Below, piece after piece: positions 1-60,025 of a stretch of DNA of 64,000 nucleotides; within the stretch, counting starts at the first letter, position 1, and each line of letters opens with the position of its first letter. A program made the position numbers and the translations under genes. The notes below the pieces were generated by a model. It was not told the origin of the DNA and did no database searches. It saw nothing but the letters and a program-made list of their open reading frames with translations. This DNA is from Anaerolineales bacterium (GTDB lineage: Bacteria; Chloroflexota; Anaerolineae; Anaerolineales; Villigracilaceae): assembly GCA_030680795.1 (NCBI GenBank), contig JAUXUL010000036.1:16766-80765 (forward strand), in the 5' to 3' direction.

Positions 1-61
1 GCTTGCTTCAACGGAGGAACGCCGTCTTGCATTAACATTGTTCATAATGAGAATTGCTGAC

Positions 62-103
62 TTGACAGGGGGATGTTTCTATGTGAGAATTCAGAAACTG
101 AAT
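62..103 (+). promoter_or_regulatory. Candidate promoter plus dyad operator, regulator unit 1
   Basis: TTGACA 62-67, 17-nt spacer, TG-extended GAGAAT 85-90. Perfect dyad ATTCAG(89-94)-AAA-CTGAAT(98-103) overlaps the -10. Same architecture recurs at 1662, 3675 and 5584. Confidence 0.6.
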
Positions 104-112
104 GCTCAACCT

Positions 113-580
113 ATGACAGATATCAAACCAAACGAATACGCACTTCTCAATGAAATTGCCCAAGACTCAATGGTAACCCAGGCAAATTTATCAGACCGAC
201 TGGGTATTGCTGTTGGCAGCGTCAACTGGTATATCAAACGTCTCATTACTCGCGGCTGGGTCAAGGTCTCACACCTCGATCGTACGCGCCTGAAATATGA
301 CCTGACAGCGGAAGGCATGGCTGTTCTTTCACAGCGTGCGCTGCTTTATGCCCGCGACTCGCTCAAAGTGTATGGCCAGTATAGAGTAAAAGCAAAGACC
401 CTTGTAAAAGATTTGAAAGAGCAGGGTATTCGGTCCGTATATATTGACGGTGATGATGAAGCCATGGATATCATGCGCCTGACCTGTATTGAAAACGAGA
501 TCCTGCTAAGCGAGGCCCCACAAGATGTTGCGCTGAAGGCCGTTGGACAGGAATTTCAGGTGATCGTTTCCTCTTCCTGA
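113..580 (+). CDS. Small winged-helix (MarR-like) transcriptional regulator with short Rossmann-like C-terminal module, paralog 1
   Basis: ORF 38-580. Start placed at ATG 113 (MTDIKPNEY), where the paralogs become colinear. wHTH segment QANLSDRLGIAVGSVNWYIKRLITRGWVKV; C-terminal VYIDGDDEAMDIMRLTCIENEI. Confidence 0.75.
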   Translation: MTDIKPNEYALLNEIAQDSMVTQANLSDRLGIAVGSVNWYIKRLITRGWVKVSHLDRTRLKYDLTAEGMAVLSQRALLYARDSLKVYGQYRVKAKTLVKDLKEQGIRSVYIDGDDEAMDIMRLTCIENEILLSEAPQDVALKAVGQEFQVIVSSS

Positions 581-611
581 TCTGTAAATTTTACAAGGAC
601 TAAAGAGTATT

Positions 612-872
612 ATGACTGCAAGCAATAGTGCAATTTTAAAGGACGAATGGGATCTTATTATCCGCCCGCAACGGAATTGGTGGGATCTGCATTTGGATGA
701 CTTGTGGCGCTACCGCGACCTGATTCAGTTGTTGGTCTGGCGCGATTTTGTGGCTTATTACAAGCAGACCATTCTAGGACCGTTGTGGTATATCATCCAG
801 CCGGTACTGACGACCGTTGTCTTTACTGTGATTTTTGGGAACATTGCCAAACTTTCCACCGACGGCCTGCCT
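612..872 (+). pseudogene. 5' remnant (about 87 codons) of an ABC-2 (Wzm-type) permease gene
   Basis: MTASNSAILKDEWDLIIRPQRNWWDLHLDDLWRYRDLIQLLVWRDFVAYYKQTILGPLWYIIQPV... resembles the N-terminus of the intact Wzm at 25863. Colinearity with the second remnant (2399-) stops after STDGLP. The rest of ORF 612-1013 is unrelated read-through. Confidence 0.75.
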
Positions 873-1085
873 GTGCGTACACGCAGACAGGTTGTCTCTT
901 TCGACATTGAGTATAAATGTAGGAAGGGCGGATGCTGGAAAAACAGGGTAGGGCAACTGCAAGGTGATAAAACTTGTAGCCGGGACAATTCGTTTTGGGT
1001 TTTGAATGTATAGTAGAATCACGCTTGTAGACCGGCAGACCCTAATCCAGATGTGTATTGAAAATGTCAGACGCAGGAGGTTCCA

Positions 1086-1337
1086 ATGATTCATGAATAT
1101 ATCGAAACTGCTTTACGCCACGCGCATTATGAGATCATAAAAGACGAGCAACCCTATTATGGTGAAGTGCCAGAGTTACAGGGGGTTTGGGCGACAGGAA
1201 AATCCCTGGAAGAATGCCGTCAGAACCTGACCGAAGTCGTGGATGGTTGGGTGTTAGTAAGACTGGCGCGCGGATTGCCAATTCCTCCTATCGGTAAGAT
1301 GCAAATCAGACTTCCACAGAAGATGGCTGTTGCCTAA
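1086..1337 (+). CDS. hicB: HicB-family antitoxin
   Basis: 83 aa. YYGEVPELQGVWATGKSLEECRQNLTEVVDGWV matches the HicB/UPF0150 fold pattern. Overlaps the downstream HicA-like ORF; GGAGG precedes the ATG. Confidence 0.7.
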   Translation: MIHEYIETALRHAHYEIIKDEQPYYGEVPELQGVWATGKSLEECRQNLTEVVDGWVLVRLARGLPIPPIGKMQIRLPQKMAVA

Positions 1338-1551
1338 ACTTTCTCCTGTCAGTTGGCGGGAATTCGTCAAACGCCTGCGTCAATTGGGCTTTGAGGGACC
1401 CTTTGAAGGTGGTCAGCATCCCTACATGGTGCATGGAGACCTCGTTGTGACGATTCCAAACCCACACCGCAGTGAAATAAGTGTGGATTTACTTCAGCTA
1501 ATACTGCGCCAGGCAGGAATAAGCCGTAAAGAGTGGCTTGGCGAGTCATAA
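1330..1551 (+). CDS. hicA: HicA-family toxin (YcfA-like)
   Basis: 73 aa, TTG start. SWREFVKRLRQLGFEGPFEGGQHPYMVHGDLVVTIPNPHRSEISVDLLQLILRQAGISRKEW is typical HicA. 8-nt overlap with hicB. Confidence 0.7.
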   Translation: MPKLSPVSWREFVKRLRQLGFEGPFEGGQHPYMVHGDLVVTIPNPHRSEISVDLLQLILRQAGISRKEWLGES

Positions 1552-1661
1552 CCGTCTTCACGCGAAGCGTTCATCCTTCCTAATTCATCCTTTCCTCCCC
1601 GTCCTCGGTCTCCGGTCCTCGGTCTTTTTCCCCCTTTGGGCTAACATTATAGAATTTCCAC

Positions 1662-1703
1662 TTGACAGGATGCTGTTTCCATGCGAGAATTCAGAAACTG
1701 AAT
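1662..1703 (+). promoter_or_regulatory. Candidate promoter plus dyad operator, regulator unit 2
   Basis: TTGACA 1662-1667, N17, GAGAAT 1685-1690. ATTCAG 1689-1694 / CTGAAT 1698-1703. Confidence 0.6.
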
Positions 1704-1713
1704 GCTCAAACCG

Positions 1714-2181
1714 ATGACAGATGTTAAACAGCACGAATATGATCTTTTGAACGAGATTGCCCGGGACTCACTCGGCACCCAGGCCAATCTATCCGACCGC
1801 CTGGGGATCGCCGTCGGCAGCGTGAATTGGTACATCAAGCGCCTGATTAACCGCGGCTGGGTCAAGGTCTCGCACCTCGATCGTACCCGCCTGAAATATG
1901 ACCTGACCTCGGAAGGCATGGCTGTTCTTTCACAGCGCGCCCTGCTTTATGCCCGCGACTCGCTCAAAGTGTATGGCCAGTATAGAGTAAAAGCGCAGAC
2001 TCTGGTAAAAGATCTGAAAGAGCAGGGTATTCGGTCCGTTTATATTGACGGAAATGACGAAGCCATGGATATCCTACGCCTGACCTGTATTGAAAACGAG
2101 ATCCTGCTAAGCGATGCCCCACAAGGTGTTGCGCTGAAGGCCGTTGGACAGGAATTTCAAGTGATCGTTTCCTCTTCCTGA
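1714..2181 (+). CDS. wHTH regulator paralog 2 (mosaic of paralog-3-like 5' half and paralog-1-like 3' half)
   Basis: ORF 1702-2181, conserved start ATG 1714. Same wHTH GIAVGSVNWYIKRLINRGWVKV and the same C-terminal module as paralog 1. Confidence 0.75.
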   Translation: MTDVKQHEYDLLNEIARDSLGTQANLSDRLGIAVGSVNWYIKRLINRGWVKVSHLDRTRLKYDLTSEGMAVLSQRALLYARDSLKVYGQYRVKAQTLVKDLKEQGIRSVYIDGNDEAMDILRLTCIENEILLSDAPQGVALKAVGQEFQVIVSSS

Positions 2182-2216
2182 TATGAAATTATGACTATAC
2201 TGCAAAAACATAAAAC

Positions 2217-2348
2217 TTTAACGCAAGGACGCTAGGACGCAAAAAAATAAAAGTTTTGGCGTAAAATGTTGCAACATTTTGCCTCAAGAACGCGCAAAAG
2301 TGAAGTATCTTTTTGAAAATCTTGGCGACTTTGCGCCTTTGCGTTAAA
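2217..2348. repeat. MITE-like hairpin element inserted between regulator 2 and wzm remnant 2
   Basis: Segment about 2184-2376 is absent from the equivalent spacer of unit 1. Imperfect terminal inverted repeats TTTAACGCAAGG (2217-2228) / CCTTTGCGTTAAA (2336-2348). Central 18-bp palindrome AAAATGTTGCAACATTTT. Confidence 0.5.
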
Positions 2349-2398
2349 AATTTGACTTTTTTCAGTGGTCTCAATTATTACAAGGACTAAAGAGTATT

Positions 2399-2725
2399 AT
2401 GACTGCAAGCAATAGCGCAATTTTAAAAGATGAATGGGACCTTATCATCCGCCCGCAGCGTAATTGGTGGGATTTGCATTTGGCTGACTTATGGGCGTTA
2501 CCGTGATCTGATCCAGCTATTGGTCTGGCGCGATTTTGTAGCTTATTACAAACAGACCATTCTGGGGCCGCTCTGGTATATCATCCAACCGGTGCTGACC
2601 ACAGTTGTCTTTACCGTTATTTTTGGGAACATTGCCAAACTTTCCACTGATGGACTGCCTCCATTCTTGTTTTACATGGCGGGAACCACGGTCTGGAGTT
2701 ATTTCAGCGCCTGCCTGGTGAGCAC
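2399..2725 (+). pseudogene. Second 5' remnant of the same Wzm-type permease gene, frameshifted and truncated
   Basis: ATG 2399 reads MTASNSAILKDEWDLIIRPQRNWWDLHLADLWALP then stop. A 1-nt insertion relative to remnant 1 shifts into ORF 2430-2759 (RYRDLIQLLVWRDFVAYYKQTILGPLWY...PPFLFYMAGTTVWSYFSACL). Permease similarity ends near 2725. Confidence 0.75.
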
Positions 2726-2864
2726 CTCCGTCTCCCGTTCTCCGTCCACTACTCCCTGATTACTGTTGCTTCGCTTGCTTCGGTATGGGGGGTGAAGTAT
2801 ACTGGGATGGTAAGGATTGGATAAAAGACAGTGGTGATTGGAATCGCCCGGAGGATCTGAAATA

Positions 2865-3119
2865 TTGACACACACAGTGAAAATCGAGTTGCCTGAGAGT
2901 TTGCTTGACCGCGCCCGTGTTGAGGCCTGGGATGAAGCTCGTGAATTGGTCACGTTCCTGCTTGAAAGGTACGTGCAAGAGTTGGAAAAGGCGCAGCGCT
3001 GGCAGGCTTACGAGGCCTATTATGAGGCGCGCACGCCGCAAGACGAAGCAGAAGAGCGTGAACTGATGGCCGATTTTGCCTTCGCCGATGCAGAATCTAA
3101 CGATGTATTTCCGATATGA
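2865..3119 (+). CDS. Putative antitoxin of the MazF-type toxin (family not recognised)
   Basis: ORF 2838-3119. TTG 2865 lies 9 nt after GGAGGA (2850-2855). Acidic C-terminus; ATGA overlap with the downstream toxin gene. Confidence 0.5.
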   Translation: MTHTVKIELPESLLDRARVEAWDEARELVTFLLERYVQELEKAQRWQAYEAYYEARTPQDEAEERELMADFAFADAESNDVFPI

Positions 3120-3460
3120 ACCAGGTCGTTCAGCGTGGAGACATCTTTTGGGCTAACCTGGATCCGACGATTGGGGTTGAGATCAAGAAGGCCAGGCCTG
3201 TCGTAGTAGTCTCCAATAACGTGATAAACCAGCGCAGCCAACTGGTCATCGTCGTGCCGTTGACGACAAACATTGAACGCCTTTCTCCCAGCCATGTCTT
3301 GATCCCTCGTGGCGAAGGTGGGTTGAGTCAGGATTCCAAAGTTCTCACTGAACAAATCCGGGCAATGGACAAACAACGGTTGACCGGCAAGGCTGGCAGC
3401 CTGTCGGAGCGTTTTCTACGATTGATTGAACAGGCGCTCCACAATTCTCTCGACATGTGA
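3116..3460 (+). CDS. mazF: MazF/PemK-family endoribonuclease toxin
   Basis: 114 aa. RGDIFWANLDPTIGVEIKKARPVVVVSNN...LVIVVPLTTN is the classic PemK/MazF signature. Confidence 0.85.
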   Translation: MNQVVQRGDIFWANLDPTIGVEIKKARPVVVVSNNVINQRSQLVIVVPLTTNIERLSPSHVLIPRGEGGLSQDSKVLTEQIRAMDKQRLTGKAGSLSERFLRLIEQALHNSLDM

Positions 3461-3508
3461 ATTCATTTCGAGCGCATCACCCTCGCGCCTCGCATCGCCC
3501 GCAAGACT

Positions 3509-3647
3509 ATGCTCCAGCCGCCGTCCCTTGCGAAGCATCCTGTGGACGGCGGCGTTTGCAGGGTAAATCTGGCAGATTGAGCCTGTCGAAATCTTGCCCG
3601 AGGCTTGTACTGCCGAAGGTGTCGAAGTGACGGCGCAAGGAGCAACT
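3509..3647. repeat. Structured repeat, family D, long copy
   Basis: Shares ATGCTCCAGCCGCCGTCC, GGCGTTTGCAGGGTAAATCT, CGAGGCTTGTACTG, AGCCTGTCGAA and GTGACGGCGCAAGGAGCAACT with 5453-5546. The ends are complementary (TGCTCC..GCCGTC / GACGGC..GGAGCA). Confidence 0.6.
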
Positions 3648-3674
3648 TGCCGACCCTGGGCTGAATTTTCCCAC

Positions 3675-3716
3675 TTGACAAGGGGGTATTTCCATGTGAG
3701 AATTCAGAAACTGAAT
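3675..3716 (+). promoter_or_regulatory. Candidate promoter plus dyad operator, regulator unit 3
   Basis: TTGACA 3675-3680, N17, GAGAAT 3698-3703. ATTCAG 3702-3707 / CTGAAT 3711-3716. Confidence 0.6.
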
Positions 3717-3726
3717 GCTCAAGCCG

Positions 3727-3990
3727 ATGACAGATGTTAAACAGCACGAATATGATCTTTTGAACGAGATAGCCCGGGACTCGCTCGGCACCCAGGCCCA
3801 TCTATCCGACCGGCTGGGGATCGCCGTCGGCAGCGTGAATTGGTATATCAAACGCCTGATTAATCGCGGCTGGGTCAAGGTCTCGCACCTCGATCGTACC
3901 CGCCTGAAATACGATCTGACCTCGGAAGATTTGCGGGTTATTACCCAACGCATGATGTCCTGCGCTCGGGATTCGTTGAAGGTGTATTGA
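3727..3990 (+). CDS. C-terminally truncated regulator paralog 3 (wHTH only, 87 aa); possibly a pseudogene
   Basis: Colinear with paralog 2 to ...LKYDLTSE, then a divergent 20 aa ending ARDSLKVY. Its stop TGA abuts the wecB-like ATG (TGAATG). Confidence 0.6.
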   Translation: MTDVKQHEYDLLNEIARDSLGTQAHLSDRLGIAVGSVNWYIKRLINRGWVKVSHLDRTRLKYDLTSEDLRVITQRMMSCARDSLKVY

Positions 3991-5061
3991 ATGGGAATTA
4001 AGACCATCGCTTCCATTGTCGGCGCGCGGCCGCAGTTCATAAAAGCCGCGCCTGTTTCGCGCGCGCTGGCTTCTGATTTCAAGGAAGTTTTTATCCATAC
4101 CGGCCAGCATTATGACCATGGGATGTCTGAGGTTTTCTTTACTGAAATGGAAATGCGCCCGCCCGATTTCAATTTGGGAATTGGCGGCGGTTCGCATGGG
4201 GAGCAAACCGGGAAGATGCTGGTTGAATTGGAGAAAATCTTCGACAATGTGAAGCCCGATTGCGTGCTTGTTTATGGCGATACCAATTCCACGCTGGCGG
4301 GCGCGCTTGCGGCGGCCAAGGCGGGGATTCCGCTTGCGCACGTGGAAGCAGGCTTGAGGTCCTATAACAGAGCGATGCCCGAGGAAGTGAATCGTGTGCT
4401 GACCGATCATGTCTCCAGCATGTTGTTTTGTCCCACACATGCGGCGGTCGAAAACCTTGCAAAAGAGGGAATTGTGAACGGCGTTCATCGTGTGGGGGAT
4501 GTGATGTGCGATGCGCTTTTACATAATCTCGCCAATGCGCGTGCGAGATCGAAAATTTTGAGGCGGCTTGATCTGAAGGCGGGTGAGTACTCGCTCGCCA
4601 CGGTTCATCGCGCCGCCAATACAGACGATGCGGAACGGATGCGTTCGATTCTTAGCGGGTTGGGGAGGCTGTCCACCCGGGTTGTTTTTCCTGTGCATCC
4701 GCGCACGCGCAAAGTGATCCAGGAATGGGGCATTTCAGCGGGTTCAAATGTGCTGATGGTTGAACCGGTTGGTTACTTTGATATGTTGATCTTGCAGGAA
4801 AATGCCGATTGTATTTTGACCGATTCAGGCGGCGTGCAAAAGGAAGCCTACCTTGCAGGCGTGCGCTGCATCACGCTGCGCGAAGAGACCGAATGGGTGG
4901 AAACAGTATCTGGTGGCTGGAATAAACTGGTAGGCGCGAACACGAACATGATCGTGGATACCTATAACACATGGCATCCGCAAGGGGAACGCGCTCCCTT
5001 GTATGGGGACGGCCATTCTGCGCCTCAAATCTGTAAGTTAATTTCCTCGACCCTTGGTTGA
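3991..5061 (+). CDS. wecB: UDP-N-acetylglucosamine 2-epimerase family (WecB/WbpI-type, non-hydrolysing)
   Basis: 356 aa. IVGARPQFIKAAPV, HTGQHYD, GDTNSTLAGALAA and HVEAGLRSYNRAMPEEVNR motifs. Confidence 0.85.
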   Translation: MGIKTIASIVGARPQFIKAAPVSRALASDFKEVFIHTGQHYDHGMSEVFFTEMEMRPPDFNLGIGGGSHGEQTGKMLVELEKIFDNVKPDCVLVYGDTNSTLAGALAAAKAGIPLAHVEAGLRSYNRAMPEEVNRVLTDHVSSMLFCPTHAAVENLAKEGIVNGVHRVGDVMCDALLHNLANARARSKILRRLDLKAGEYSLATVHRAANTDDAERMRSILSGLGRLSTRVVFPVHPRTRKVIQEWGISAGSNVLMVEPVGYFDMLILQENADCILTDSGGVQKEAYLAGVRCITLREETEWVETVSGGWNKLVGANTNMIVDTYNTWHPQGERAPLYGDGHSAPQICKLISSTLG

Positions 5062-5114
5062 TTATGGCTTTTGCAAAGTTGCTTGACAAAAGCAAAAGCC
5101 GTACTCTGAAACAT

Positions 5115-5182
5115 GTCACCCTGAGCGGAGCGAAGGGTCTCTGAGATGAAAACAGAGATTCTTCGCTTCGCTACTAAGGAAC
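5115..5182. repeat. Palindromic element family B (right end degenerate)
   Basis: GTCACCCTGAGCGGAGCGAAGGGTCTCTGA... is nearly identical to the start of the copy at 29756. Confidence 0.6.
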
Positions 5183-5195
5183 AAGAATTTGTGGC

Positions 5196-5211
5196 GCGAC
5201 ATTTATGTCGC
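5196..5211. repeat. 16-bp palindrome GCGACATTTATGTCGC (family E)
   Basis: Identical 16-mer recurs at 54230-54245. Confidence 0.6.
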
Positions 5212-5452
5212 TTGACCGTGCAGAGCAACATATTGCATATTAACAATTAAACCGAGCAATCCATAAAACCTATTTTGAACCACCAAAACACGGAGAAAAC
5301 CAATTTAAAAACTCCATGACTCGGTATCTCCGTGGTAAAGGCTTTATCTTTCCTTGAGGATGATTTGCTCGATTAATTTGGAAAGCTTCAAAATGTCGCG
5401 CTACGGATACCGCCCAAGTTCCTTTGGCTTTGAACAACGTCTTTTTTTGCTT

Positions 5453-5546
5453 ATGCTCCAGCCGCCGTCCCCAGCGGCGTTTGCAGGGTAAATCTTGCGC
5501 CGAGGCTTGTACTGAGCCTGTCGAAGTGACGGCGCAAGGAGCAACT
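5453..5546. repeat. Structured repeat, family D, short copy
   Basis: See 3509-3647. Both copies lie about 30-40 nt upstream of a regulator promoter and are followed by ACCCTGGGCTGA. Confidence 0.6.
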
Positions 5547-5583
5547 TGTTAATTTCCTCAACCCTGGGCTGAGATTTCATCAC

Positions 5584-5625
5584 TTGACAGGGGGATGGTT
5601 CTATGTGAGAATTCAGAAACTGAAT
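5584..5625 (+). promoter_or_regulatory. Candidate promoter plus dyad operator, regulator unit 4
   Basis: TTGACA 5584-5589, N17, GAGAAT 5607-5612. ATTCAG 5611-5616 / CTGAAT 5620-5625. Confidence 0.6.
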
Positions 5626-5634
5626 GCTCAACCT

Positions 5635-6114
5635 ATGACCGAAGTCAAACAGCACGAATACGCCCTTCTCAATGAAATTGCCCAGAACTCAATGGTAACC
5701 CAGGCGAATCTATCTGACCGCCTGGGCATTGCGGTTGGCAGCGTCAATTGGTACATTAAACGATTGATCCAGCGCGGCTGGGTCAAGGTCTCTCATCTTG
5801 ACCGTACGCGCTTGAAGTATGATCTCACGCCTGATGGGATGGCAGTATTCACGCAAAGGGCTTTGCTATATGCGCGTGATTCTTTGAAAGTGTATGGAAA
5901 TCTTCGGCAGAAAGCAAAGGCACTGGTCACGGAATTACAGGAACAAGACCTTCAGCAGGTCTATCTCAATGGCGATGATGAGGCCATGGATATACTGCGT
6001 CTCACTTGTATTGAAGCGGGGATTCAAATAAGTGATATTCCAGAAGAGTGTATCCTTGAAGCCGTTGGGCAGGGGTACCAGGTGAAACGCTTGAAAGGAA
6101 AAAACCATGCCTAA
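5635..6114 (+). CDS. wHTH regulator paralog 4
   Basis: ORF 5584-6114, conserved start ATG 5635 (MTEVKQHEY). wHTH GIAVGSVNWYIKRLIQRGWVKV. Divergent C-terminal half VYLNGDDEAMDILRLTCIEAGI. 8-nt overlap with the next gene. Confidence 0.75.
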   Translation: MTEVKQHEYALLNEIAQNSMVTQANLSDRLGIAVGSVNWYIKRLIQRGWVKVSHLDRTRLKYDLTPDGMAVFTQRALLYARDSLKVYGNLRQKAKALVTELQEQDLQQVYLNGDDEAMDILRLTCIEAGIQISDIPEECILEAVGQGYQVKRLKGKNHA

Positions 6115-7054
6115 AAATTTTGCAGTCATCGGCGTTGGCGGTTATATTGCTCCGCGCCATTTACGCGCCATCCGTGATACGGGCAATCAACTCGTCGCCG
6201 CGGTAGACCCGAAGGATTCCGTCGGTCTGCTGGATCAATATTCTTTTGACGTGAAATTCTTTACCGAGATCGAACGCTTTGACCGTCACCTCGAAAAACT
6301 GCGCCGTGGACCCAAAGAGAACCGTGTGCATTATGTGACGGTCTGCTCGCCCAATTATTTACACGATGCGCATTGCCGCCTCGCATTACGCGTAGGCGCG
6401 GATGTGATCTGCGAAAAGCCATTGGTGATCAACCCCTGGAATTTTGACGCGCTCGAAGAATTGGAAGCCGAGACAAAACACCGCATCCATACCATCTTGC
6501 AGTTGCGCGTCCACCCCGAGTTGATCAAACTCCGCGAGTCTTTGCAAAATTCAAGCGGCATGCACGACGTCGAGTTGACCTACATCACCAGCCGCGGACC
6601 CTGGTATCAAGTCTCATGGAAGGGACATGAGGATAAATCAGGCGGTGTGGCTACGAATATTGGCGTACATTTCTTTGATCTTTTATTATGGTTGTTTGGT
6701 TCTGTAAATGGAATCAAGGTATATCATTCCGATGAAAGTTGCATGTCTGGCTTTATTGAGTTGGAGCATGCCCGCGTGCACTGGTTCCTCTCGGTTGACA
6801 AAAATGACCTGCCATTTTCTGCAAAGGCTGGCGGCAAAACGACCTATCGTTCAATCACAGTAGATGGCAAGGAAATTGAATTTTCAGAAGGCTTTACTGA
6901 TTTGCATACCCGTGTCTACGAAGAGACACTGGCAGGGCGTGGATTTGGTATCAAGGATGCGCGTCCATCCATTCAATTAACACATGCCATTCGCACCGCT
7001 GAAATTTCGCCGAAGGATGACATGGCTCACCCGCTGTTGAAGAACGCCAGGTGA
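6107..7054 (+). CDS. wbpB: WbpB/WlbA-type UDP-2-acetamido-2-deoxy-sugar 3-dehydrogenase (Gfo/Idh/MocA)
   Basis: 315 aa. Recalled colinearity with P. aeruginosa WbpB: NFAVIGVGGYIAPRHLRAIRDTGN, CSPNYLH, DVICEKPLV, YITSRGPWYQVSWKG, ATNIGVHFFD, TYRSITVDGKEIEFSEGFTDLHT. Confidence 0.85.
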   Translation: MPKNFAVIGVGGYIAPRHLRAIRDTGNQLVAAVDPKDSVGLLDQYSFDVKFFTEIERFDRHLEKLRRGPKENRVHYVTVCSPNYLHDAHCRLALRVGADVICEKPLVINPWNFDALEELEAETKHRIHTILQLRVHPELIKLRESLQNSSGMHDVELTYITSRGPWYQVSWKGHEDKSGGVATNIGVHFFDLLLWLFGSVNGIKVYHSDESCMSGFIELEHARVHWFLSVDKNDLPFSAKAGGKTTYRSITVDGKEIEFSEGFTDLHTRVYEETLAGRGFGIKDARPSIQLTHAIRTAEISPKDDMAHPLLKNAR

Positions 7055-7081
7055 CAGTCACTTTAAAAGTGACTGTCACCT
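7049..7081. repeat. 33-nt near-perfect palindrome (16-bp arms) overlapping the wbpB stop codon
   Basis: AGGTGACAGTCACTTT-A-AAAGTGACTGTCACCT. No U-tract follows. Confidence 0.7.
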
Positions 7082-7095
7082 GATGATGGAAATCT

Positions 7096-7674
7096 ATGCC
7101 TGATTATTTTGTTCACGAATCCAGTTATGTGGATGATGGCGCGGAGATTGGCGCCGGCACGAAGATATGGCATTTCTGCCACATCATGCCTCGCGCAAAA
7201 ATTGGCGAACGCTGTAATGTTGGTCAGAATGTACTGGTCTCTTCGGATGTGACCATTGGAAATAATGTAAAGATCCAAAACAACGTTTCGCTTTATACAG
7301 GTGTGATTGTTGAGGATGATGTTTTCCTCGGCCCCTCGATGGTATTTACTAATGTTATCAACCCGCGCAGTCATGTCAGCAGAAAAGATGAATATAAGAC
7401 TACGCTGGTTCGAAAAGGTGCCTCCATTGGGGCAAATGCAACGATTGTTTGCGGAACAACTTTGGGCAAATATTGTTTTGTCGGCGCGGGTGCGGTGGTG
7501 ACGAGAGACGTGCCAGACTACGCGCTCGTTTACGGCTCCCCTGCGCGCGTACGCGGTTGGATATGTCAGTGTGGTGAACAATTGAAATTCGAAGATGACC
7601 GCGCAGTCTGCAATGGTTGCGGTGATGCTTATCAAAAACAGGAACAAGTCGTCAGTCCAGAAAGAGGCGTTTGA
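7096..7674 (+). CDS. wbpD: WbpD/WlbB-type 3-amino-sugar N-acetyltransferase (left-handed beta-helix)
   Basis: 192 aa. [19 protein letters not shown], hexapeptide repeats, [45 protein letters not shown]. Confidence 0.85.
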
Positions 7675-8768
7675 TGATTCCATTGGTTGACCTTACAGCG
7701 CAGTATCATTCCATCAAAAAAGAAATTGACGCGGCTGTCCTGTCCACCTTGGAATCGGGTCATTTTATTCTTGGACCACAGGTCACAAAATTTGAGGAAA
7801 GTGTCGCTTCGTACCTAGGCATGGACTTTGCGGTTGGACTGGCTTCGGGGACGGATGCGCTGGTGATCGCATTGCGGGCGTTGAATGTTGGCGCGGACGA
7901 TGAAGTCATCATGCCTGCCTATACGTTTTTTGCGACGGCAGGCACGGTCATGTCTGTCGGCGCGAAACCCCTCTTTGTGGATGTTGACCCGCAGACGTAT
8001 CAAATTGACGTGAGCAAAATTAGGTCTGCAATTACGCCAAAGACGAAAGCGATCATTCCCGTGCATTTGTACGGGCATCCCGCCGAGATGAATCCGATCC
8101 TTGAGATTGCGCGTGAGCATGGTTTGAAAATCATCGAAGATAACGCGCAGGGGTTCGGCGCGGAATATCTTGGCAGGAAAACTGGTTCACTCGGCGATAT
8201 TGGATGCTTGAGTTTTTTTCCCACAAAAAATCTCGGAGCGTTTGGCGATGCGGGCATGGTTGTGACAAATGACCCCGCGCTGGCTGAACGAATGCGAATG
8301 CTGCGGACGCACGGCTGGAAGAAAAAATATTATTCTGAAGAGGTCGGCTACAACAGCCGCATTGATGCTTTGCAAGCCGCCATCCTGCAAGCCAAACTGC
8401 CATACCTAGATTCGTGGAATGAGAAACGCCGCGAACTGGCTCAGCGCTACAGCGAGAAACTTGGTCCAAATCTTGTCACCCCGATCGAACGAGAATGGGG
8501 CAGGCATGTCTATCACCTGTATATTGTCCGCTCTGCAAAACGCGAGGAATTACAGGCATTTTTGAAACAGAAGGGGATTGCTTCTGAGGTATATTATCCC
8601 ATGCCACCGCATCTTTCTGTGCCATGCAGAAAATTTGGCTACAAGGAAGGTGACTTCCCCCATGCTGAGTTGGCATCACATGAGACTTTTGCGCTTCCGC
8701 TTTACCCTGAGTTGACTTTGTCCCAGCAGGATGAGGTGATCGCGGCGGTGCATGAGTTTGTGGGTTGA
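7671..8768 (+). CDS. wbpE: DegT/DnrJ/EryC1-family PLP aminotransferase (WbpE-type)
   Basis: 365 aa. [52 protein letters not shown] overlap with wbpD. Confidence 0.8.
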
Positions 8769-8771
8769 TAA

Positions 8772-10280
8772 ATGGTTAATTTGCCAGTTTCGCCCAACCC
8801 GCAAAACCCTGATAATAAAAAGAAAACCAACTTTTCAGCAGACATATTCAAGTTGGTGTCAGGCACGGCAATTTCGCTGGCACTAGGCGTGTTGATAATG
8901 CCTTTGCTGGCGCGTTTGTATGCGCCAGCCGCTTTTGGCGTGCTGGCTCTTTTTACTTCAATTGCAGGGATCCTCGCGGTCATTATTAGTCTGCGATATG
9001 AAATTACAATCATGCTCCCTGAAAGCGATAAGGAGGCGGCCAATCTTTTGGCAGGCAGTTTGGGCGTTGCAACAGTGAACAGCCTGCTTAGTATTCCACT
9101 GGTTTGGTTTGGCGCGCCATTTATTGGGCGGTGGTTGAAATCTCCAGAACTTGTGCCTTACTTGTGGTTATTAATCCCGGTGGTGTTTTTTGGCGGCGTT
9201 GGCGCCGGTCATCCAGCTTTGAATGCCTGGGCAAGCCGTAAACGAAATTTTACCCAAATCTCCACAACACGCGTGATCGGTAGCTTGACGCTCAATGCGG
9301 CGAAGTTGATTGCTGGGTTTTCCAGTTTTAATTCTGCTGTCGGTTTGATCTATGGCACCCTGATTGGTGCAATATGTTCGCCGTTCTTTCTTGGCTGGCA
9401 GATCTGGAGGCAAGATAAAATCCCGTTTTATGAAAATATTAGCCTTTCGCAAGCTTTGGCGGGATTAAAGAAATACCGAAAGTTTTCCTTATATAACACT
9501 TTGTCTACGCTGCTCAATACGGTCTCCTGGCAGGTGCCGTCTTTCATGCTTTCCGCTTTTTTTTCCACCACTGTGGTAGGGTATTATGCGTTTGGCAGTC
9601 AGTTGCTGCGTGTGCCAATGGATTTAATCGGCAATTCGATCGGGCAGGCTTTTTATTCGCATGCGGCTATAGCCCACCGCGAAGGGACTCTGGCGGTCTT
9701 TGTTGAGAACACATTCCGCCGCCTTGTAGAGTATAGTTTTTTTCCGATTTTAATGCTGACTGTAATTGGCAAAGACTTATTCCAGGTTGTATTCGGTTCA
9801 CAGTGGGCAGAGTCCGGGGTTTATACCCAAATATTGAGCATATGGATGGTTTTCTGGTTTGTTTCATCTCCGATGAGTCAGCTATACAGCGTTCTACAGA
9901 AGAATGAACTATTTCTAGGGCTGAATGTGGTCATTCTGATTACTCGTATTGTGTCCATTTGGCTTGGGGGAGTATTGGAAAGTCCGCGCCTTGCATTGCT
10001 CTTCTTCTCTATTTCAGGCGCAGTGGTATATGGTTTTCTTGGTGCTTCAATTATTTTCTTCTCTGGCGTTCCCTGGCGCAGGATAGTACGAATTATTCTT
10101 GAAAATCTTGCCGTATCCATACTTGCTGCTGGGGCGCTTTTTCTCTTTAATCTAATTCATGCTGCAAGTTGGGTGCAATTGATCGTAGCTGTGGTATTTA
10201 TCGGAATCTATTTTGCGTATCGTCTCAAAGACAACGAACGCGTAAAACATTTTTTTGTAAAGAGAACATCCATCAACTAA
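8772..10280 (+). CDS. wzx: Wzx-type oligosaccharide flippase (MOP superfamily)
   Basis: 502 aa, polytopic (about 12-14 hydrophobic segments). Position and size are typical of polysaccharide-biosynthesis flippases. Confidence 0.7.
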   Translation: MVNLPVSPNPQNPDNKKKTNFSADIFKLVSGTAISLALGVLIMPLLARLYAPAAFGVLALFTSIAGILAVIISLRYEITIMLPESDKEAANLLAGSLGVATVNSLLSIPLVWFGAPFIGRWLKSPELVPYLWLLIPVVFFGGVGAGHPALNAWASRKRNFTQISTTRVIGSLTLNAAKLIAGFSSFNSAVGLIYGTLIGAICSPFFLGWQIWRQDKIPFYENISLSQALAGLKKYRKFSLYNTLSTLLNTVSWQVPSFMLSAFFSTTVVGYYAFGSQLLRVPMDLIGNSIGQAFYSHAAIAHREGTLAVFVENTFRRLVEYSFFPILMLTVIGKDLFQVVFGSQWAESGVYTQILSIWMVFWFVSSPMSQLYSVLQKNELFLGLNVVILITRIVSIWLGGVLESPRLALLFFSISGAVVYGFLGASIIFFSGVPWRRIVRIILENLAVSILAAGALFLFNLIHAASWVQLIVAVVFIGIYFAYRLKDNERVKHFFVKRTSIN

Positions 10281-23190: not shown

Positions 23191-23209
23191 TATAATTCAG
23201 TGACTGAAT
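23191..23209 (+). promoter_or_regulatory. TATAAT -10 with overlapping dyad operator, regulator unit 5
   Basis: TATAAT 23191-23196. ATTCAG 23195-23200, TGA, CTGAAT 23204-23209. Confidence 0.55.
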
Positions 23210-23231
23210 TTTGGATTACGAAGTACTGTAT

Positions 23232-23699
23232 ATGGAATCAACAAACGACGAACTCCGCGAACTTTCCCTGCTTGAGCAGATCGAAAGCGACCCAAATGTG
23301 AATCAATCCGCGCTGGCAGTGCAGCTTGGCGTTGCAGTTGGCACGGTCAATTGGCATTTAAAGCGCCTGATTGCAAAAGGCGCTGTCAAAGTCTCGCGCG
23401 CTGAGCGCAAGAAACTGCGTTATATCATCACGCCCGAAGGCATTGCCCTGCGCGCCCGCCTCGCACTGGATTATGTGGAACGTTCATTTTTAGTTTATCG
23501 CCGCACACGTCAGCGCGTGAAAGATCATGTTTCAATAATTCGCCATGCCGGCTTCGATCGGGTGCGCATCGTTGGTTCTGGTGATGTGGCGGATATTTGC
23601 AAACTTACCTGCCTCGAACAAGGCATTTCAGTTGTGAACGATAAAACTGTACCAGCCTTAATTTTGGATGGATATAAGATCAGATTGGATGGTTTGTAA
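23232..23699 (+). CDS. wHTH regulator paralog 5 (divergent)
   Basis: ORF 23211-23699, ATG 23232 (MESTNDEL). QSALAVQLGVAVGTVNWHLKRLIAKGAVKV; C-terminal RVRIVGSGDVADICKLTCLEQGISVV. Confidence 0.7.
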   Translation: MESTNDELRELSLLEQIESDPNVNQSALAVQLGVAVGTVNWHLKRLIAKGAVKVSRAERKKLRYIITPEGIALRARLALDYVERSFLVYRRTRQRVKDHVSIIRHAGFDRVRIVGSGDVADICKLTCLEQGISVVNDKTVPALILDGYKIRLDGL

Positions 23700-29750: not shown

Positions 29751-29755
29751 GGAAT

Positions 29756-29829
29756 GTCATCCTGAGCGGAGCGAAGGATCTCTGACACGACGAAAAGACT
29801 CTTCGGCCGCTCTGCTTCCTCAGAGTGAC
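29756..29829. repeat. Palindromic element family B, complete copy
   Basis: GTCATCCTGAGCGGAGCGAAGGATCTCTGA...CCTCAGAGTGAC, with terminal inverted repeats. Confidence 0.7.
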
Positions 29830-50638: not shown

Positions 50639-50666
50639 TGGGGATGGGTAGCCGAAAAAATCCAAA

Positions 50667-50694
50667 ATTCACCGCCTGAATTTTGGAGTATAAT
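50667..50694 (+). promoter_or_regulatory. Operator-like dyad plus TATAAT upstream of the PAPS-synthase gene
   Basis: ATTCAC 50667-50672, CGC, CTGAAT 50676-50681, inside the 10-bp inverted repeat CCAAAATTCA/TGAATTTTGG. TATAAT 50689-50694. Confidence 0.45.
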
Positions 50695-50803: not shown

Positions 50804-52531
50804 ATGGCAAAAGCAAAACTCATCCCGCCTTATGGCGGCAAACTGGTCAACCTGATGGTCGAAGGCAAGGAGCGTGAAGAACTTCTCGCCCGCGCCGGGC
50901 AACTTCCTTCCATCAAGATCACCATGCGTAATATGTGCGACCTCGAATTGATCGCCACGGGCGGATTTTCTCCACTGGCCACATTCATGGGCAAAGCCGA
51001 TTATGACCGAGTGCTCAAGGAAATGCGCCTTGCGGATGGAACGCTCTTCCCGCTTCCCATCACCCTGACAGCTGATCCTAAAGAACTAGCGACCATTGGC
51101 GAAGAACTGGCATTGCGAAGCGCAAACTTCGATCTGATCGCGGTGATGACTCTTGATGAGGTCTATCACTGGGATGCAGAGACCGAAGCGACATTGGCTT
51201 ATGGTTCAACTGACTCCAAGCACCCGATGGTCTCTGAGATGGAGCGGTGGGACAAGGTCTGCATCTCTGGACCAATGAAAGTTGTTAACCTCCCCAAGTA
51301 TTATGACTTTGTGAATTTGAGACACACGCCCGTTCAGATACGTGACATGCTCGAAAAGATGGGACATGATAATGTGGTCGCATTTCAGACCCGCAATCCT
51401 TTGCACCGCATTCATGAAGAACTCACCAAACGCGCCGCGGCTGAGGTCAAAGGCTCGTTGATCGTTCACCCCGTCGTCGGTATGACCAAGCCCGGTGATG
51501 TGGATCATTACACCCGCGTCCGAACATACAAGGCGTTGGTGGATAATTACTACGACAAGAAAGACACCATGCTCAGCCTGCTTCCGCTGGCAATGCGTAT
51601 GGCGGGTCCAAAGGAAGCGTTACTGCATGCCATCATTCGTCGTAACCACGGTGCGAATCATTTTGTTGTCGGCCGCGATCACGCAGGGCCGGGAAACGAT
51701 TCTTCGGGCAAACCATTCTACGGTCCGTATGAGGCGCAGGAAGTCATGAAGAAATACGAAGCCGAGCTAGGCGTCAAGATGATCCCGTTCGAAATGCTCG
51801 TCTATCTGCCTGATGAAGATCGTTATGTCGAAGAGAAGGAAGTGCCCAGGGGCATGAAGACAGCCAATATTTCCGGCACACAAGTCCGCGATGAATATCT
51901 GATCAAGGGTAAGTTGTTACCTGAATGGTTCACACGACCCGAGACCGCTGAGATCTTGCGCGAGATGTATCCGCCGCGCCACAAGCAGGGCTTTTGTATT
52001 TGGTTTACCGGCTTAAGCGGTTCAGGCAAGAGCGCCACATCAGAGGTGCTCACCACGTTGCTCCTCGAACGCGGACGTGAGATAGCCATTCTCGATGGTG
52101 ATGTGGTTCGCACGCATCTTTCCAAGGGACTTGGTTTCAGCAAGGAAGATCGCGACACCAATATCATTCGCATCGGATTCGTAGCCGGCGAAATTGTCCA
52201 CGCAAGCGGTGCTGTGATTTGTGCAGCAATTAGTCCATACCGCGCTACCCGCGCAGAAGCCCGCAAGATGGTGGGTGAGAACTTCATCGAAGTGTACATG
52301 GATACCCCCGTTGAAGTCTGCGAACAACGCGATGTAAAAGGTTTATATGCCAAAGCGCGCCAGGCTATGGCGGACGGTAAGCCGATGGGCTTCACCGGCG
52401 TGGACGATCCCTACGAACCGCCGATCGAACCTTCGATCACGCTCCAGGGCTTCGGCGCAACACCGGAAGACAATGCCCGCATTATCATCAAGTACCTTGA
52501 AGACCAGGGCTATATTCTGCCTGCAAAATAG
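50804..52531 (+). CDS. Bifunctional sulfate adenylyltransferase / adenylylsulfate kinase (PAPS synthase)
   Basis: 575 aa. QTRNPLHRIHEEL and VGRDHAGPG (ATP sulfurylase). C-terminal FTGLSGSGKS P-loop (APS kinase). Confidence 0.9.
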   Translation: MAKAKLIPPYGGKLVNLMVEGKEREELLARAGQLPSIKITMRNMCDLELIATGGFSPLATFMGKADYDRVLKEMRLADGTLFPLPITLTADPKELATIGEELALRSANFDLIAVMTLDEVYHWDAETEATLAYGSTDSKHPMVSEMERWDKVCISGPMKVVNLPKYYDFVNLRHTPVQIRDMLEKMGHDNVVAFQTRNPLHRIHEELTKRAAAEVKGSLIVHPVVGMTKPGDVDHYTRVRTYKALVDNYYDKKDTMLSLLPLAMRMAGPKEALLHAIIRRNHGANHFVVGRDHAGPGNDSSGKPFYGPYEAQEVMKKYEAELGVKMIPFEMLVYLPDEDRYVEEKEVPRGMKTANISGTQVRDEYLIKGKLLPEWFTRPETAEILREMYPPRHKQGFCIWFTGLSGSGKSATSEVLTTLLLERGREIAILDGDVVRTHLSKGLGFSKEDRDTNIIRIGFVAGEIVHASGAVICAAISPYRATRAEARKMVGENFIEVYMDTPVEVCEQRDVKGLYAKARQAMADGKPMGFTGVDDPYEPPIEPSITLQGFGATPEDNARIIIKYLEDQGYILPAK

Positions 52532-58321: not shown

Positions 58322-60025
58322 ATGGCCATGAAAGATTTTTTCACCCAACGCATCAAACGCGGACTTGTCCGCAGGCTCAATAATCTAAAGATCACGGCGA
58401 TGGCGAAGCGTGTGGCTCGTCAGGAGCCGCAACCTTCGGGCGCGCCTGTCCTCTTTTTCAAAGCGTCCACAGGGATTGATGATCTCTCGTGGAACAGCGG
58501 ATTTCATCTGCTGGCATCGTGGGCGTTTCGCTTGCTGGGAATCCCTGTTATTTATTTTGCATGTAACTCTGGCATGAGTCATTGTGTGCTTGGGACGAAT
58601 CGCGATCATGTGCAGAAAAAGCCTCCGTGTAAGTCATGTGTGTATCAATCGAAGACGTTATACACGGGTACAAATCCACATTGGTTTACTTTTGAGCGTG
58701 ATAAAGAACTTGAAAAAACTCTGGAAAATCTTAATGTCGGAGAATTATCCAAATTTCAATGGAAATTAATAAACTATGATGTCATTGCGAGAAGCCGCGA
58801 AGCGGCGACGAAGCAATCTCCTCGTGAGTCGGAGATTGCTTCGTCGCAAAGTGCGCTCCTCGCAATGACATTGCCTTTGGGGGCGTTGTGTCTGCCTGGA
58901 CTGAGATGGGTCCTGAGAGTTCACCATCTGAAAGACGATGAAGCGACGCGTTATCTTTTCAGGGAATATATTTTATCGGCGTGGAATGTCGCGCAAAAAT
59001 TTGAAGCGCTACTCGATCAGACTCAGCCGCGGGCTGTTCTGGTTTTCAATGGACAGTTCTTCCCCGAAGCGACCGCGCGTTACATGGCGTTGAAGCGCGG
59101 CATTCGTGTGATCACGCATGAGGTGGGCTTGCAGCCTGCGACGGCGTACTTTACCGCAGGCGAAGCGACGGCCTACCCGATTGCGATCCCTGAGACGTTC
59201 GAGATGAACGCCGAACAAAATGCAAAACTGGATGCGTATCTTGCGAAGCGCTTTCAAGGGGACTTCACGATGGCGGGCATCAAGTTTTGGGCGGACATGC
59301 AGAGACTCGATGAATCGTTTTTGAAGAAAGCCGCGGGCTTCAAACAGATCGTGCCTGTGTTTACGAATGTGATTTTCGATACCAGCCAACCGCACGCCAA
59401 CACGGTCTTTGAAGATATGTTCGATTGGCTGGATTTGGTGTTGGAGGAAATTCGCTCACACCCTGAAACCTTGTTCGTGATCCGCGCGCACCCCGATGAA
59501 ACCCGAGTACGCAAAGCCAGCCGCGAGACGGTGGCGGGCTGGGTTGAAGCGCGCCGTGTAACGGACTTGCCGAATGTGGTTTTCGTATCGCCACAGGAAA
59601 CGCTCAGTTCGTATGAGTTGATCCTGAAGTCGAAGTTCGTGATGGTTTATAACTCGACCATCGGCTTGGAGGCTGCGATCATGGGCGCTGCGGTGTTGTG
59701 CGCGGGCAAGGCGAGATTTACACAATACCCGACTGTGTTCTTCCCGCAGACAGTGGATGAGGTAAGAGGAAAGATGAAAGAATTTTTAGCGGCTGATGCG
59801 ATTGTTGTTCCGCTTGAATTCAAACGCAATGCGCGCAGGTTCTTGTATTATCAGTTGTTCAGAACATCATTGCCGTTTGGGGAATTTCTTGAGCCATCTG
59901 TCCGCACTACGCAGACGAGATTGAAGTCGTTTGGGTTGGAAGAGGTGGTGAGTTCGGAGTCGGTGAAGGTAATTATGGAGGGAGTGTTGGAGGGTGGAGA
60001 TTTTTTGTTGAAAGCGAATCAGTGA
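58322..60025 (+). CDS. KpsC/KpsS-like capsule-biosynthesis (Capsule_synth-type) GT-B protein, paralog 2, carrying an in-frame repeat insertion
   Basis: 567 aa. FVIRAHPDE and VYNSTIGLEAAIMGAAVLCAG. Colinear by eye with the 28110 protein. Confidence 0.6.
   Translation: MAMKDFFTQRIKRGLVRRLNNLKITAMAKRVARQEPQPSGAPVLFFKASTGIDDLSWNSGFHLLASWAFRLLGIPVIYFACNSGMSHCVLGTNRDHVQKKPPCKSCVYQSKTLYTGTNPHWFTFERDKELEKTLENLNVGELSKFQWKLINYDVIARSREAATKQSPRESEIASSQSALLAMTLPLGALCLPGLRWVLRVHHLKDDEATRYLFREYILSAWNVAQKFEALLDQTQPRAVLVFNGQFFPEATARYMALKRGIRVITHEVGLQPATAYFTAGEATAYPIAIPETFEMNAEQNAKLDAYLAKRFQGDFTMAGIKFWADMQRLDESFLKKAAGFKQIVPVFTNVIFDTSQPHANTVFEDMFDWLDLVLEEIRSHPETLFVIRAHPDETRVRKASRETVAGWVEARRVTDLPNVVFVSPQETLSSYELILKSKFVMVYNSTIGLEAAIMGAAVLCAGKARFTQYPTVFFPQTVDEVRGKMKEFLAADAIVVPLEFKRNARRFLYYQLFRTSLPFGEFLEPSVRTTQTRLKSFGLEEVVSSESVKVIMEGVLEGGDFLLKANQ
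58781..58869. repeat. Palindromic element family A copy inside the CDS, read in frame
   Basis: GTCATTGCGAGAAGC...GACGAAGCAATCTCC...GGAGATTGCTTCGTCGC...CTCGCAATGAC, translated as VIARSREAATKQSPRESEIASSQSALLAMT. Confidence 0.8.

Follow-up and report, generated by a model that had tools for sequence, protein, structure and literature searches.

The first 6 kb of a 64-kb stretch of DNA from an Anaerolineales metagenome-assembled genome (the whole stretch is referred to below as the window) carry a stack of four units belonging to a surface-glycan locus, each made up of a promoter-operator block of about 60 nucleotides (nt) and a gene for a small winged helix-turn-helix (wHTH) protein. We propose, with a probability of roughly 60%, that this arrangement reflects an autorepressor regulon combined with the scars of recombinational cassette turnover at a conserved module. 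Members of this order are filamentous, mostly uncultured and abundant in sludge, sediments and soils, and to our knowledge almost nothing is known of how they control their cell-surface glycans.

Two repeat families of four copies each were detected by a repeat finder in this region: a 58-nt family (52–109, 1652–1709, 3665–3722 and 5574–5631, with 83–100% identity to the reference copy) and, directly downstream of these blocks, a 300-nt coding family with copies starting at 108, 1709, 3722 and 5630. In the 64 kb the 25-mer GAGAATTCAGAAACTGAATGCTCAA is present in exactly four copies, against 0.00 expected. The four open reading frames (ORFs), u1 to u4, all match HTH_24/MarR_2, with u2, u3 and u4 being 91, 78 and 73% identical to u1, respectively. 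The original prediction had described four promoter/operator blocks of about 60 nt with small wHTH genes within 6 kb, and both the repeat finder and the ORF matches bear this out; the unit starts that it gave (62, 1662, 3675 and 5584) coincide with the TTGACA −35 hexamers found in a promoter scan. Its placement of the remaining landmarks needs only small corrections. Unit 3, described as truncated and adjoining a wecB-like gene, ends with a stop codon that abuts the ATG of a wecB equivalog (3991–5061), whilst unit 4, described as heading a wbpB-wbpD-wbpE-wzx run, overlaps the first gene of a series encoding a GFO/IDH oxidoreductase, a hexapeptide acetyltransferase, a DegT aminotransferase and a MOP flippase. 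The fifth, divergent unit (23191–23699) corresponds to a regulator, u5 (23232–23699), that is 36–37% identical to the other window regulators and has the palindrome ATTCAGTGACTGAAT upstream at 23195. The features are listed here with their coordinates in the window and their strand.

52–109, + strand: promoter-operator block 1, with −35 TTGACA at 62–67, TG-extended −10 GAGAAT at 85–90 and a 23-bp palindrome at 85–107
113–580, + strand: regulator u1, 155 amino acids, an intact wHTH protein of the wzm-head subtype
591–872, + strand: spacer and 5′ stub 1 of wzm (ABC-2 permease), codons 1–87 of about 288
1086–1551, + strand: HicB antitoxin (1086–1337) and HicA toxin (1330–1551), from family matches
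1652–1709, + strand: promoter-operator block 2, from repeat, 25-mer and promoter scan
1714–2181, + strand: regulator u2, 155 amino acids, intact, with a 5′ part like that of locus L088
2190–2372, + strand: 183-nt insertion resembling a miniature inverted-repeat transposable element (MITE), between u2 and the wzm spacer
2378–2729, + strand: spacer and wzm 5′ stub 2, a pseudogene of about 110 codons with a frameshift near 2470
2838–3460, + strand: putative antitoxin ORF without a family match (2838–3119) and PemK/MazF toxin (3116–3460)
3508–3664, + strand: homologue of the sequence preceding unit 4 (5452–5573), 83–100% identical in windows
3665–3722, + strand: promoter-operator block 3, from repeat, 25-mer and promoter scan
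3727–3990, + strand: regulator u3, a truncated mosaic of 87 amino acids whose stop codon abuts the wecB ATG
3991–5061, + strand: wecB-type UDP-N-acetylglucosamine 2-epimerase (wecB equivalog)
5574–5631, + strand: promoter-operator block 4, canonical, from repeat, 25-mer and promoter scan
5635–6114, + strand: regulator u4, the canonical ortholog, 159 amino acids, intact, with an 8-nt overlap with the next gene
6107–10280, + strand: WbpB-like oxidoreductase, WbpD-like acetyltransferase, WbpE-like aminotransferase and MOP flippase, probably cotranscribed with u4
23191–23213, + strand: class-2 operator/promoter TATAATTCAGTGACTGAATTTTG, from weight matrix and dyad
23232–23699, + strand: divergent regulator u5, heading an epimerase-fcl-wzm-wzt block
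50663–50685, + strand: candidate sixth operator CCAAAATTCA-CCGCC-TGAATTTTGG, intergenic, upstream of an ATP-sulfurylase/APS-kinase gene

The blocks share a precise geometry. All four units possess a sigma-70-type promoter, composed of TTGACA, 17 nt ending in TG and then GAGAAT, and the −10 hexamer is itself part of a dyad of 23 bp, GAGAATTCAG-AAA-CTGAAT(G/T)CTC, whose left arm it forms and which ends 3–6 nt before the regulator ATG. Judged from this geometry, a transcript from the block promoter would begin inside the dyad and have a leader of about 15 nt without a Shine–Dalgarno sequence. The consensus of 79 species-level sites, CTTGACa..g......tt.t.TGtgAGAATTCA.AAacTGAAtgCTCa, has near-maximal information at the −35, the TG, the −10 and both dyad arms, with no conservation upstream of the −35. 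As to dyad symmetry, over 195 sites, position pairs 6/18, 7/17, 8/16 and 9/15 are complementary in 99–100% and pairs 2/22 and 3/21 in 92–98%. When a weight matrix is run across the window, the four blocks score 42.5 bits and the site at 23191 scores 18.4 bits, these being the only sites to beat the shuffled maximum of 5.6. The core AATTCA-N5-TGAAT is present at six places in the window (0.12 expected), the sixth at 50666, and u5 and the class-2 operator share the half-sites of the blocks. A possible operator near 58892/58915 was rejected, being a three-mismatch match inside an ORF.

The proteins encoded next to these blocks are MarR-like in their DNA-binding part. HTH_24 is matched by u1–u4 with E values of 1.6e-11 to 3.9e-10, and MarR_2 (cut-off 27 bits) by u1 at 30.4 bits and u4 at 29.1 bits, with u2 and u3 just below the cut-off; the match to the MarR profile PF01047 is below its cut-off. 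For u1–u5, Pfam returned only wHTH families, with no NusG/KOW-type factor among them; a match of u5 to Fe-ADH_2 was below threshold and is treated as chance. The recognition-helix region is identical in u1–u4 (GSVNWYIKRLI) and similar in u5 (GTVNWHLKRLI), such that all copies should recognise the same half-sites, to judge from these residues. An AlphaFold2 model (predicted local distance difference test score 88.7) has the wHTH at residues 6–64, a single 38-residue helix at 66–103 and a beta-alpha-beta-beta-beta domain at 108–152, and lacks the N-terminal dimerisation helix of the MarR architecture. The best Foldseek matches in the PDB are the MarR-family repressors FabT, ZitR, BpsR and MepR (TM-score about 0.45, over the wHTH part only), whilst a profile search of PDB sequences returned only weak wHTH or eS25 matches (best E = 0.004, eS25 being at chance level). 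The best NCBIfam match, TIGR04176 over residues 5–102, reaches 56.7 bits for u4 and 45.1 bits for u1 against a curated cut-off of 88. With no N-terminal helix and a TIGR04176 score below the cut-off, the regulator is therefore neither a canonical MarR protein nor a member of the TIGR04176 equivalog family, despite its MarR-like wHTH. The C-terminal domain gives no Pfam match for u1 or u4 and is a candidate ligand-sensing or oligomerisation domain; G113, D119, C125 and E127 are invariant in it (residues 104–159 of u4 and the equivalents in u1, u2 and u5).

Both elements are conserved across the order. About 2000 database proteins match the regulator, the best 120 being at least 75% identical, and a library clustered at 50% identity yields 271 representatives with matches at E ≤ 1e-10. 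For comparison, 80 species-level genome loci and 80 metagenome loci were fetched (designated here by L numbers). In nearly all of about 150 related loci the block lies about 24 nt upstream of the regulator ATG, and in the window and the related loci alike the regulator is the first gene of wbpB/D/E-like or wzm-wzt operons. The canonical synteny, shared by dozens of loci, runs from wecB through block-regulator-wbpB-wbpD-wbpE to wzm-wzt, the last with or without a block of its own. Counted by the recognition-helix motif, there is exactly one regulator in each of the 76 non-redundant loci of at least 10 kb, compared with five in the window; none of these 76 loci has more than one regulator or stacked heads. 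About 20 of the 76 contain a further full class-1 block that is not followed by a regulator gene. Such regulator-less blocks lie ahead of wzm (L013, L041, L076, L026 and L082), ahead of the CTP-transferase gene that follows wbpE (L001, L015, L016 and L018) or ahead of wbpB (L082 and L161). The second class of promoter, gtTATAATTCAG-N3-CTGAATTTTGgAtTAGGAGA with a TATAAT −10 and the same dyad, precedes gmd in 12 loci, and the promoter before u5 is also of this type. The complete genome CP129480.1 (L001) has three operator-headed promoters, before genes at 1765, 10001 and 13162. The regulator-less blocks imply that one regulator with several operator-bearing promoters is the norm in this lineage. 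The suggestion of a modular sub-operon control system was therefore sound at the level of the lineage, given the second blocks in about 20 of 76 loci and the gmd variant, but the module is the promoter-operator and not the regulator gene.

Several details of the related loci are worth recording. The class-2 form TATAATTCAG-N3-CTGAATTTTGgAtTAGGAGA, with a Shine–Dalgarno sequence, is found directly upstream of gmd (protein N-terminus MPTALITGITGQDGSYLAELLL). Class-2 sites are located at L001 1728, L041 711, L073 908, L105 2941, L107 562 and L109 1489, and further ones at L114 1073, L141 3001, L153 3643, L162 4390 and L166 111; that at L120 1911 has no ORF start within 90 nt. In L153, two full class-1 blocks 525 nt apart (9793 and 10318) flank a single regulator gene, the second block coming immediately after that gene and heading wzm. 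L089 has a u1-type regulator and block (1–768) directly after a wbpE-like gene, and as the contig starts inside wbpE, that genome may carry u4-type and then u1-type regulator-headed units in series. Between wzm and wzt of the regulator-headed operon in L089 lies a gene for a '23S rRNA intervening sequence protein' (1708–2067), an insertion that implies that small accessory genes enter this operon head elsewhere too.

Within the stack, only unit 4 appears to be a normal operon head. Its regulator is 88–90% identical at the amino acid level to orthologs in other species but only 73% identical to u1 and u2, which identifies unit 4 as the canonical ortholog; together with the wecB gene ahead of it, the unit also conforms to the canonical synteny. 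Units 1 and 2 differ in what follows the regulator. The original prediction noted an identical spacer after both, and the 24-nt spacer TTACAAGGACTAAAGAGTATTATG is indeed identical at 591–614 and 2378–2401, although in unit 2 a 183-nt insertion (2190–2372) separates it from the regulator stop codon. It also saw 5′ remnants of a wzm-type permease gene behind each spacer, and these are confirmed by ABC2_membrane matches. The wzm homology ends at 872 (codon 87) in unit 1, where the reading frame continues into unrelated sequence up to 1013, and at 2729 (codon ~110, after a frameshift near 2470) in unit 2. Measured against the 288-amino acid protein of L088, codons 1–87 and about 1–110 do not make a full-length Wzm: these are remnants and not genes. 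As the stubs end at different wzm codons, an already truncated stub was not simply copied from one unit to the other.

Relatives of the u1/u2 subtype in other genomes (85–88% identical) head intact wzm-wzt-methyltransferase-glycosyltransferase operons. Unit 1 (60–872) is colinear with L088 at 86% identity through promoter, regulator, spacer and wzm, and so is unit 2 once the 183-nt insertion is removed. The resident wzm of the window (~25.7–26.7 kb) was considered as the source of the stubs and rejected, since its identity is 66.7% over 168 nt compared with 86–89% for L088. The best reading of these comparisons is that units 1 and 2 are the heads of regulator-wzm-wzt operons whose cargo was lost. 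Toxin-antitoxin cassettes now follow both stubs, as had been predicted, but they do not begin exactly where the remnants end: their genes start 213 and 108 nt past the two breakpoints. The first is a HicAB pair (UPF0150/HicB-like, E = 4.4e-31; HicA_toxin, E = 6.4e-11) with genes overlapping at 1330–1337, and the second has a PemK_toxin match (E = 5.7e-32) preceded by a 93-amino acid ORF that overlaps the toxin by 4 nt and has no family match. The 183-nt insertion, with imperfect 45-nt inverted-repeat arms and a strong predicted fold (−51.6 kcal/mol), is absent from the colinear L088 and looks like a MITE, that is, a small non-autonomous mobile element. No similar DNA was found in any fetched locus for this insertion, for the post-stub sequences or for either of the toxin-antitoxin cassettes.

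Unit 3 has a composite history. Its upstream region (3500–3680) resembles that of unit 4 (83–100% in windows), 3700–3925 resembles u2 (92–97%) and 3926–3990 is like no other copy (52–63%), yet still encodes ARDSLKVY. These similarities make unit 3 a mosaic of three parts; its regulator, u3, is cut off at codon 87 and lacks both the long helix and the C-terminal domain. Mosaicism extends to u1 and u2. At positions 119–238, u2 is 93–95% identical to L088, in another genome, and 70–80% identical to u1, whereas at positions 299–418 it is u1 and u2 that are 92–93% identical, with L088 more distant; in synonymous divergence u2 is as far from L088 (0.335) as from u1 (0.337).

The paralogs differ mostly at synonymous positions, as had been noted from the sequence: u1 and u2 are separated by 37.5 synonymous and 16.5 non-synonymous differences, giving a ratio of non-synonymous to synonymous divergence (dN/dS) of 0.107. 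Pairwise values between the paralogs are 0.09–0.19 (dS 0.45 for u1–u2, 0.41 for u2–u3 and saturated against u4), compared with 0.08–0.12 for orthologs at comparable divergence. A dN/dS of about 0.1, taken together with the mosaic relationships, means that the units are not fresh duplications. The original wording, that the paralogs look maintained and not freshly duplicated, is accurate as a description of sequence history, with the purifying selection seen in orthologs, but does not by itself establish a current need for the copies; the low dN/dS probably reflects, for the most part, the time before the copies were stranded here.

We suggest the following mechanism. The 23-bp dyad would serve as operator for the wHTH protein whose gene directly follows it. 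By binding there as a dimer, the protein would block RNA polymerase and thereby repress both the regulator's own operon and the other operator-bearing promoters of the surface-glycan locus. A ligand sensed via the C-terminal alpha/beta domain would relieve repression. The usual layout would be one regulator with one to three operator-promoters, placed before gmd and following genes, before regulator-wbpB-wbpD-wbpE and before wzm-wzt or alternatives to it. In the window, units 1 and 2 would have lost their wzm-wzt cargo at different codons, with HicBA and MazEF-like cassettes now behind them, whilst unit 3 would be a recombinant truncated copy placed before wecB. The stack would then be the residue of repeated recombination, by cassette replacement or gene conversion, and not a purpose-built circuit of four regulators.

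Some considerations weigh against this interpretation. The predicted assignment of protein to operator is drawn from invariant adjacency and dyad symmetry alone, and some MarR-like proteins activate transcription, though the position of the operator here suggests repression. Stacked heads were found in no other locus, and the argument for repeated cassette turnover is therefore drawn from a single case; in addition, the window opens 51 nt before block 1, and more units may lie further upstream. Finally, u1 and u2 are both intact genes with perfect promoters, and neither terminal branch carries a surplus of non-synonymous changes (11.5 synonymous and 6.5 non-synonymous changes for u1, 7 and 6 for u2, which are small numbers). 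They may still be functional and selected, which is more than a scar needs to be.

What other explanations might account for the stack? An assembly artefact is unlikely, and a metagenome contig in which strain variants of one unit had been joined in tandem as a chimera would be very surprising. The source is indeed a metagenome-assembled genome, and the units share exact stretches of at least 25–47 nt at which graph assemblers can switch paths. The contigs of an independent assembly (Logan, run SRR13727517) are, however, 100% identical to the window over 599–1740, 2386–3537 and 3882–5527, spanning three inter-unit junctions (stub 1-HicBA-block 2, stub 2-MazEF and u3-wecB-upstream of unit 4); they end where the units share exact stretches. 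The units are moreover 73–93% identical to each other, with unique junction sequences, and assemblers usually collapse repeats rather than expanding them. There is similarly little to recommend the view that the palindrome is an RNA hairpin, serving as a processing or stability element in read-through transcripts, and not a DNA operator. The strand can fold into a 10-bp hairpin (−11.1 kcal/mol) and the internal block copies sit between co-oriented operons, but the z-score of −2.07 is weak, there is no U-tract, and an Rfam 15 scan of 1–30000 at E ≤ 1 gave zero matches at the blocks. Conservation of the −35, the 17-nt spacing and the TG-extended −10 matches that of the dyad, and a transcript from the block promoter would start within the hairpin and lack its left arm. 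(The only two Rfam matches of that scan, at 7002–7095, at the wbpB/wbpD junction, to 5.8S rRNA at 28.4 bits against a gathering threshold of 42 and to mir-743, are below gathering and are taken as chance.)

The remaining alternatives accept the stack and the operator and differ in how the units arose or what they do. A tentative one, to which we would give only a modest chance, is that the near-invariant promoter-operator-regulator module acts not just in control but also as a docking site for recombination, by which glycan cassettes would be swapped between strains or species, with the stranded but intact regulators still active and raising or re-tuning repression of the regulon; the u1–u3 stack, the mosaic alleles and the toxin-antitoxin genes would then, with the same modest chance, record one replacement after another, like fossils. 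We regard it as unlikely that a single regulator-headed unit was duplicated serially in tandem (as a segment) in situ and then decayed, with neither exchange between genomes nor cassette replacement. Such duplication would explain why the units stand head-to-tail on one strand within 6 kb, why u1 and u2 are each other's best match among database proteins (91% at the amino acid level) and why the 5′ part of u3 is 92–97% identical to u2. It does not readily explain wzm stubs that end at codons 87 and ~110, a u2 segment (119–238) that is 93–95% identical to L088 against 70–80% to u1, the equal synonymous divergence of u2 from L088 and u1 (0.335 vs 0.337) or a u4 that is closer to orthologs elsewhere (88–90%) than to u1 (73%). 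The cargo of the units also differs (wzm, wecB and wbpB), each type matching a separate arrangement in other genomes. The original prediction offered the scar of serial segmental duplications as one of its two readings, and for units 1–3 this is the closer of the two; it is the different wzm breakpoints and the mosaicism that speak against simple tandem duplication. More doubtful again is a selected multi-regulator circuit, in which u1, u2, u5 and the 87-amino acid u3 would tune the same operators through dosage, heterodimers or a competitor consisting of the wHTH only, with the toxin-antitoxin genes (a part of this proposal that we find just as doubtful) driven by the array or stabilising it. 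The full-length u1 and u2, with dN/dS of about 0.1 and intact consensus promoters, would fit such a circuit, as would the identical recognition helices, which make cross-binding plausible, and the half-sites shared by u5 and the class-2 operator. Against this, each of the 76 comparable loci has just one regulator, u1 and u2 are followed by pseudogene stubs, u3 is a mosaic without the long helix and C-terminal domain, and dN/dS cannot separate the history before stranding from that after it. An autorepressor regulon with scars of cassette turnover remains our preferred reading.

Two further features of the window touch on this locus. The site at 50663–50685 is a perfect palindrome with 10-bp arms, followed by AGTATAAT, and adjoins a TATAAT; the gene downstream (50804–52531) encodes a bifunctional ATP-sulfurylase/APS-kinase of 3′-phosphoadenosine 5′-phosphosulphate (PAPS) synthesis. 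As a sixth operator, this palindrome may tie glycan sulphation to the regulon. Separately, a dispersed repeat of about 55 nt (gtcaccctgagcggagcgaagggtctc...) is present at 5113–5165 and 29754–29805 and in other Anaerolineales genomes (L065 3396–3456, L049 2153–2213 and L165 5921–5981). This intergenic repeat looks like a repetitive extragenic palindromic (REP)-type element, that is, a short intergenic palindromic repeat.

The analysis makes a regulator-operator pair testable across the order: a 23-bp dyad embedded in a strong promoter and a regulator of about 157 amino acids with an uncharacterised C-terminal domain. The predicted regulon includes gmd, the wbpB/D/E-type diacetamido-sugar genes, wzm-wzt export and possibly PAPS synthesis, and the dyad motif can be used to annotate the boundaries of glycan operons in hundreds of metagenome-assembled genomes. 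The mosaic make-up of the stacked heads suggests that recombination, too, has a hotspot at the conserved module, a point of relevance to how surface-glycan diversity arises in the phylum.

How does this compare with systems already known? The closest parallel is with the MarR-family autorepressors (MarR, MepR, FabT and ZitR/AdcR), in which, as here, a wHTH protein is paired with a palindrome of about 20–24 bp overlapping the promoter of its own operon (binding being a prediction in the present case) and repression is presumed to be relieved by a ligand. The Anaerolineales regulator differs in having no N-terminal dimerisation helix, a wHTH that starts at residue 6 and an extra alpha/beta domain without a Pfam match. 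TIGR04176, the 'MarR family EPS-associated transcriptional regulator', is by its name likewise associated with exopolysaccharide (EPS) loci, but its profile is 105 residues long, compared with 155–159 amino acids and an extra C-terminal domain here. JUMPStart/ops is a short conserved non-coding block heading enterobacterial polysaccharide operons that works with RfaH; ops acts from within the transcribed leader, where it serves to recruit an antiterminator. Both it and the present block are conserved at the heads of polysaccharide operons, but the Anaerolineales block is the promoter itself plus a dyad, and the ops octamer GGCGGTAG has 0 matches in the window. O-antigen and capsule loci turn over by recombination at conserved flanks, and the window is like them in its conserved edge, mosaic alleles, truncated transporter remnants and nearby small selfish genes. 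It differs in that the anchor would be the regulator-promoter module, and the stack of decapitated heads is found in 0 of 76 related long loci.

The statement that no polysaccharide locus organised in this way is known was too strong. In Bacteroides, capsule operons each begin with genes for paralogous UpxY/UpxZ regulators, the paralogs can cross-regulate other loci, and UpxY, an elongation factor of NusG-like type, acts on transcribed DNA/RNA and has UpxZ as its inhibitor (PMC11685472). The likeness is one of layout only, with paralogous regulator genes placed first in polysaccharide operons; the mechanism is different. The Bacteroides loci are dispersed and phase-variable, whereas in Anaerolineales a wHTH protein is predicted to act at a promoter-embedded dyad, normally with one regulator and several operators. 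We found no description of this regulator or module in the literature on Anaerolineae glycans, although coverage was incomplete and such absence is weak evidence. The regulator-operator system is best described as an undescribed variant of a familiar kind, and its four-fold repetition in this genome is most likely evolutionary debris and not a new regulatory design.

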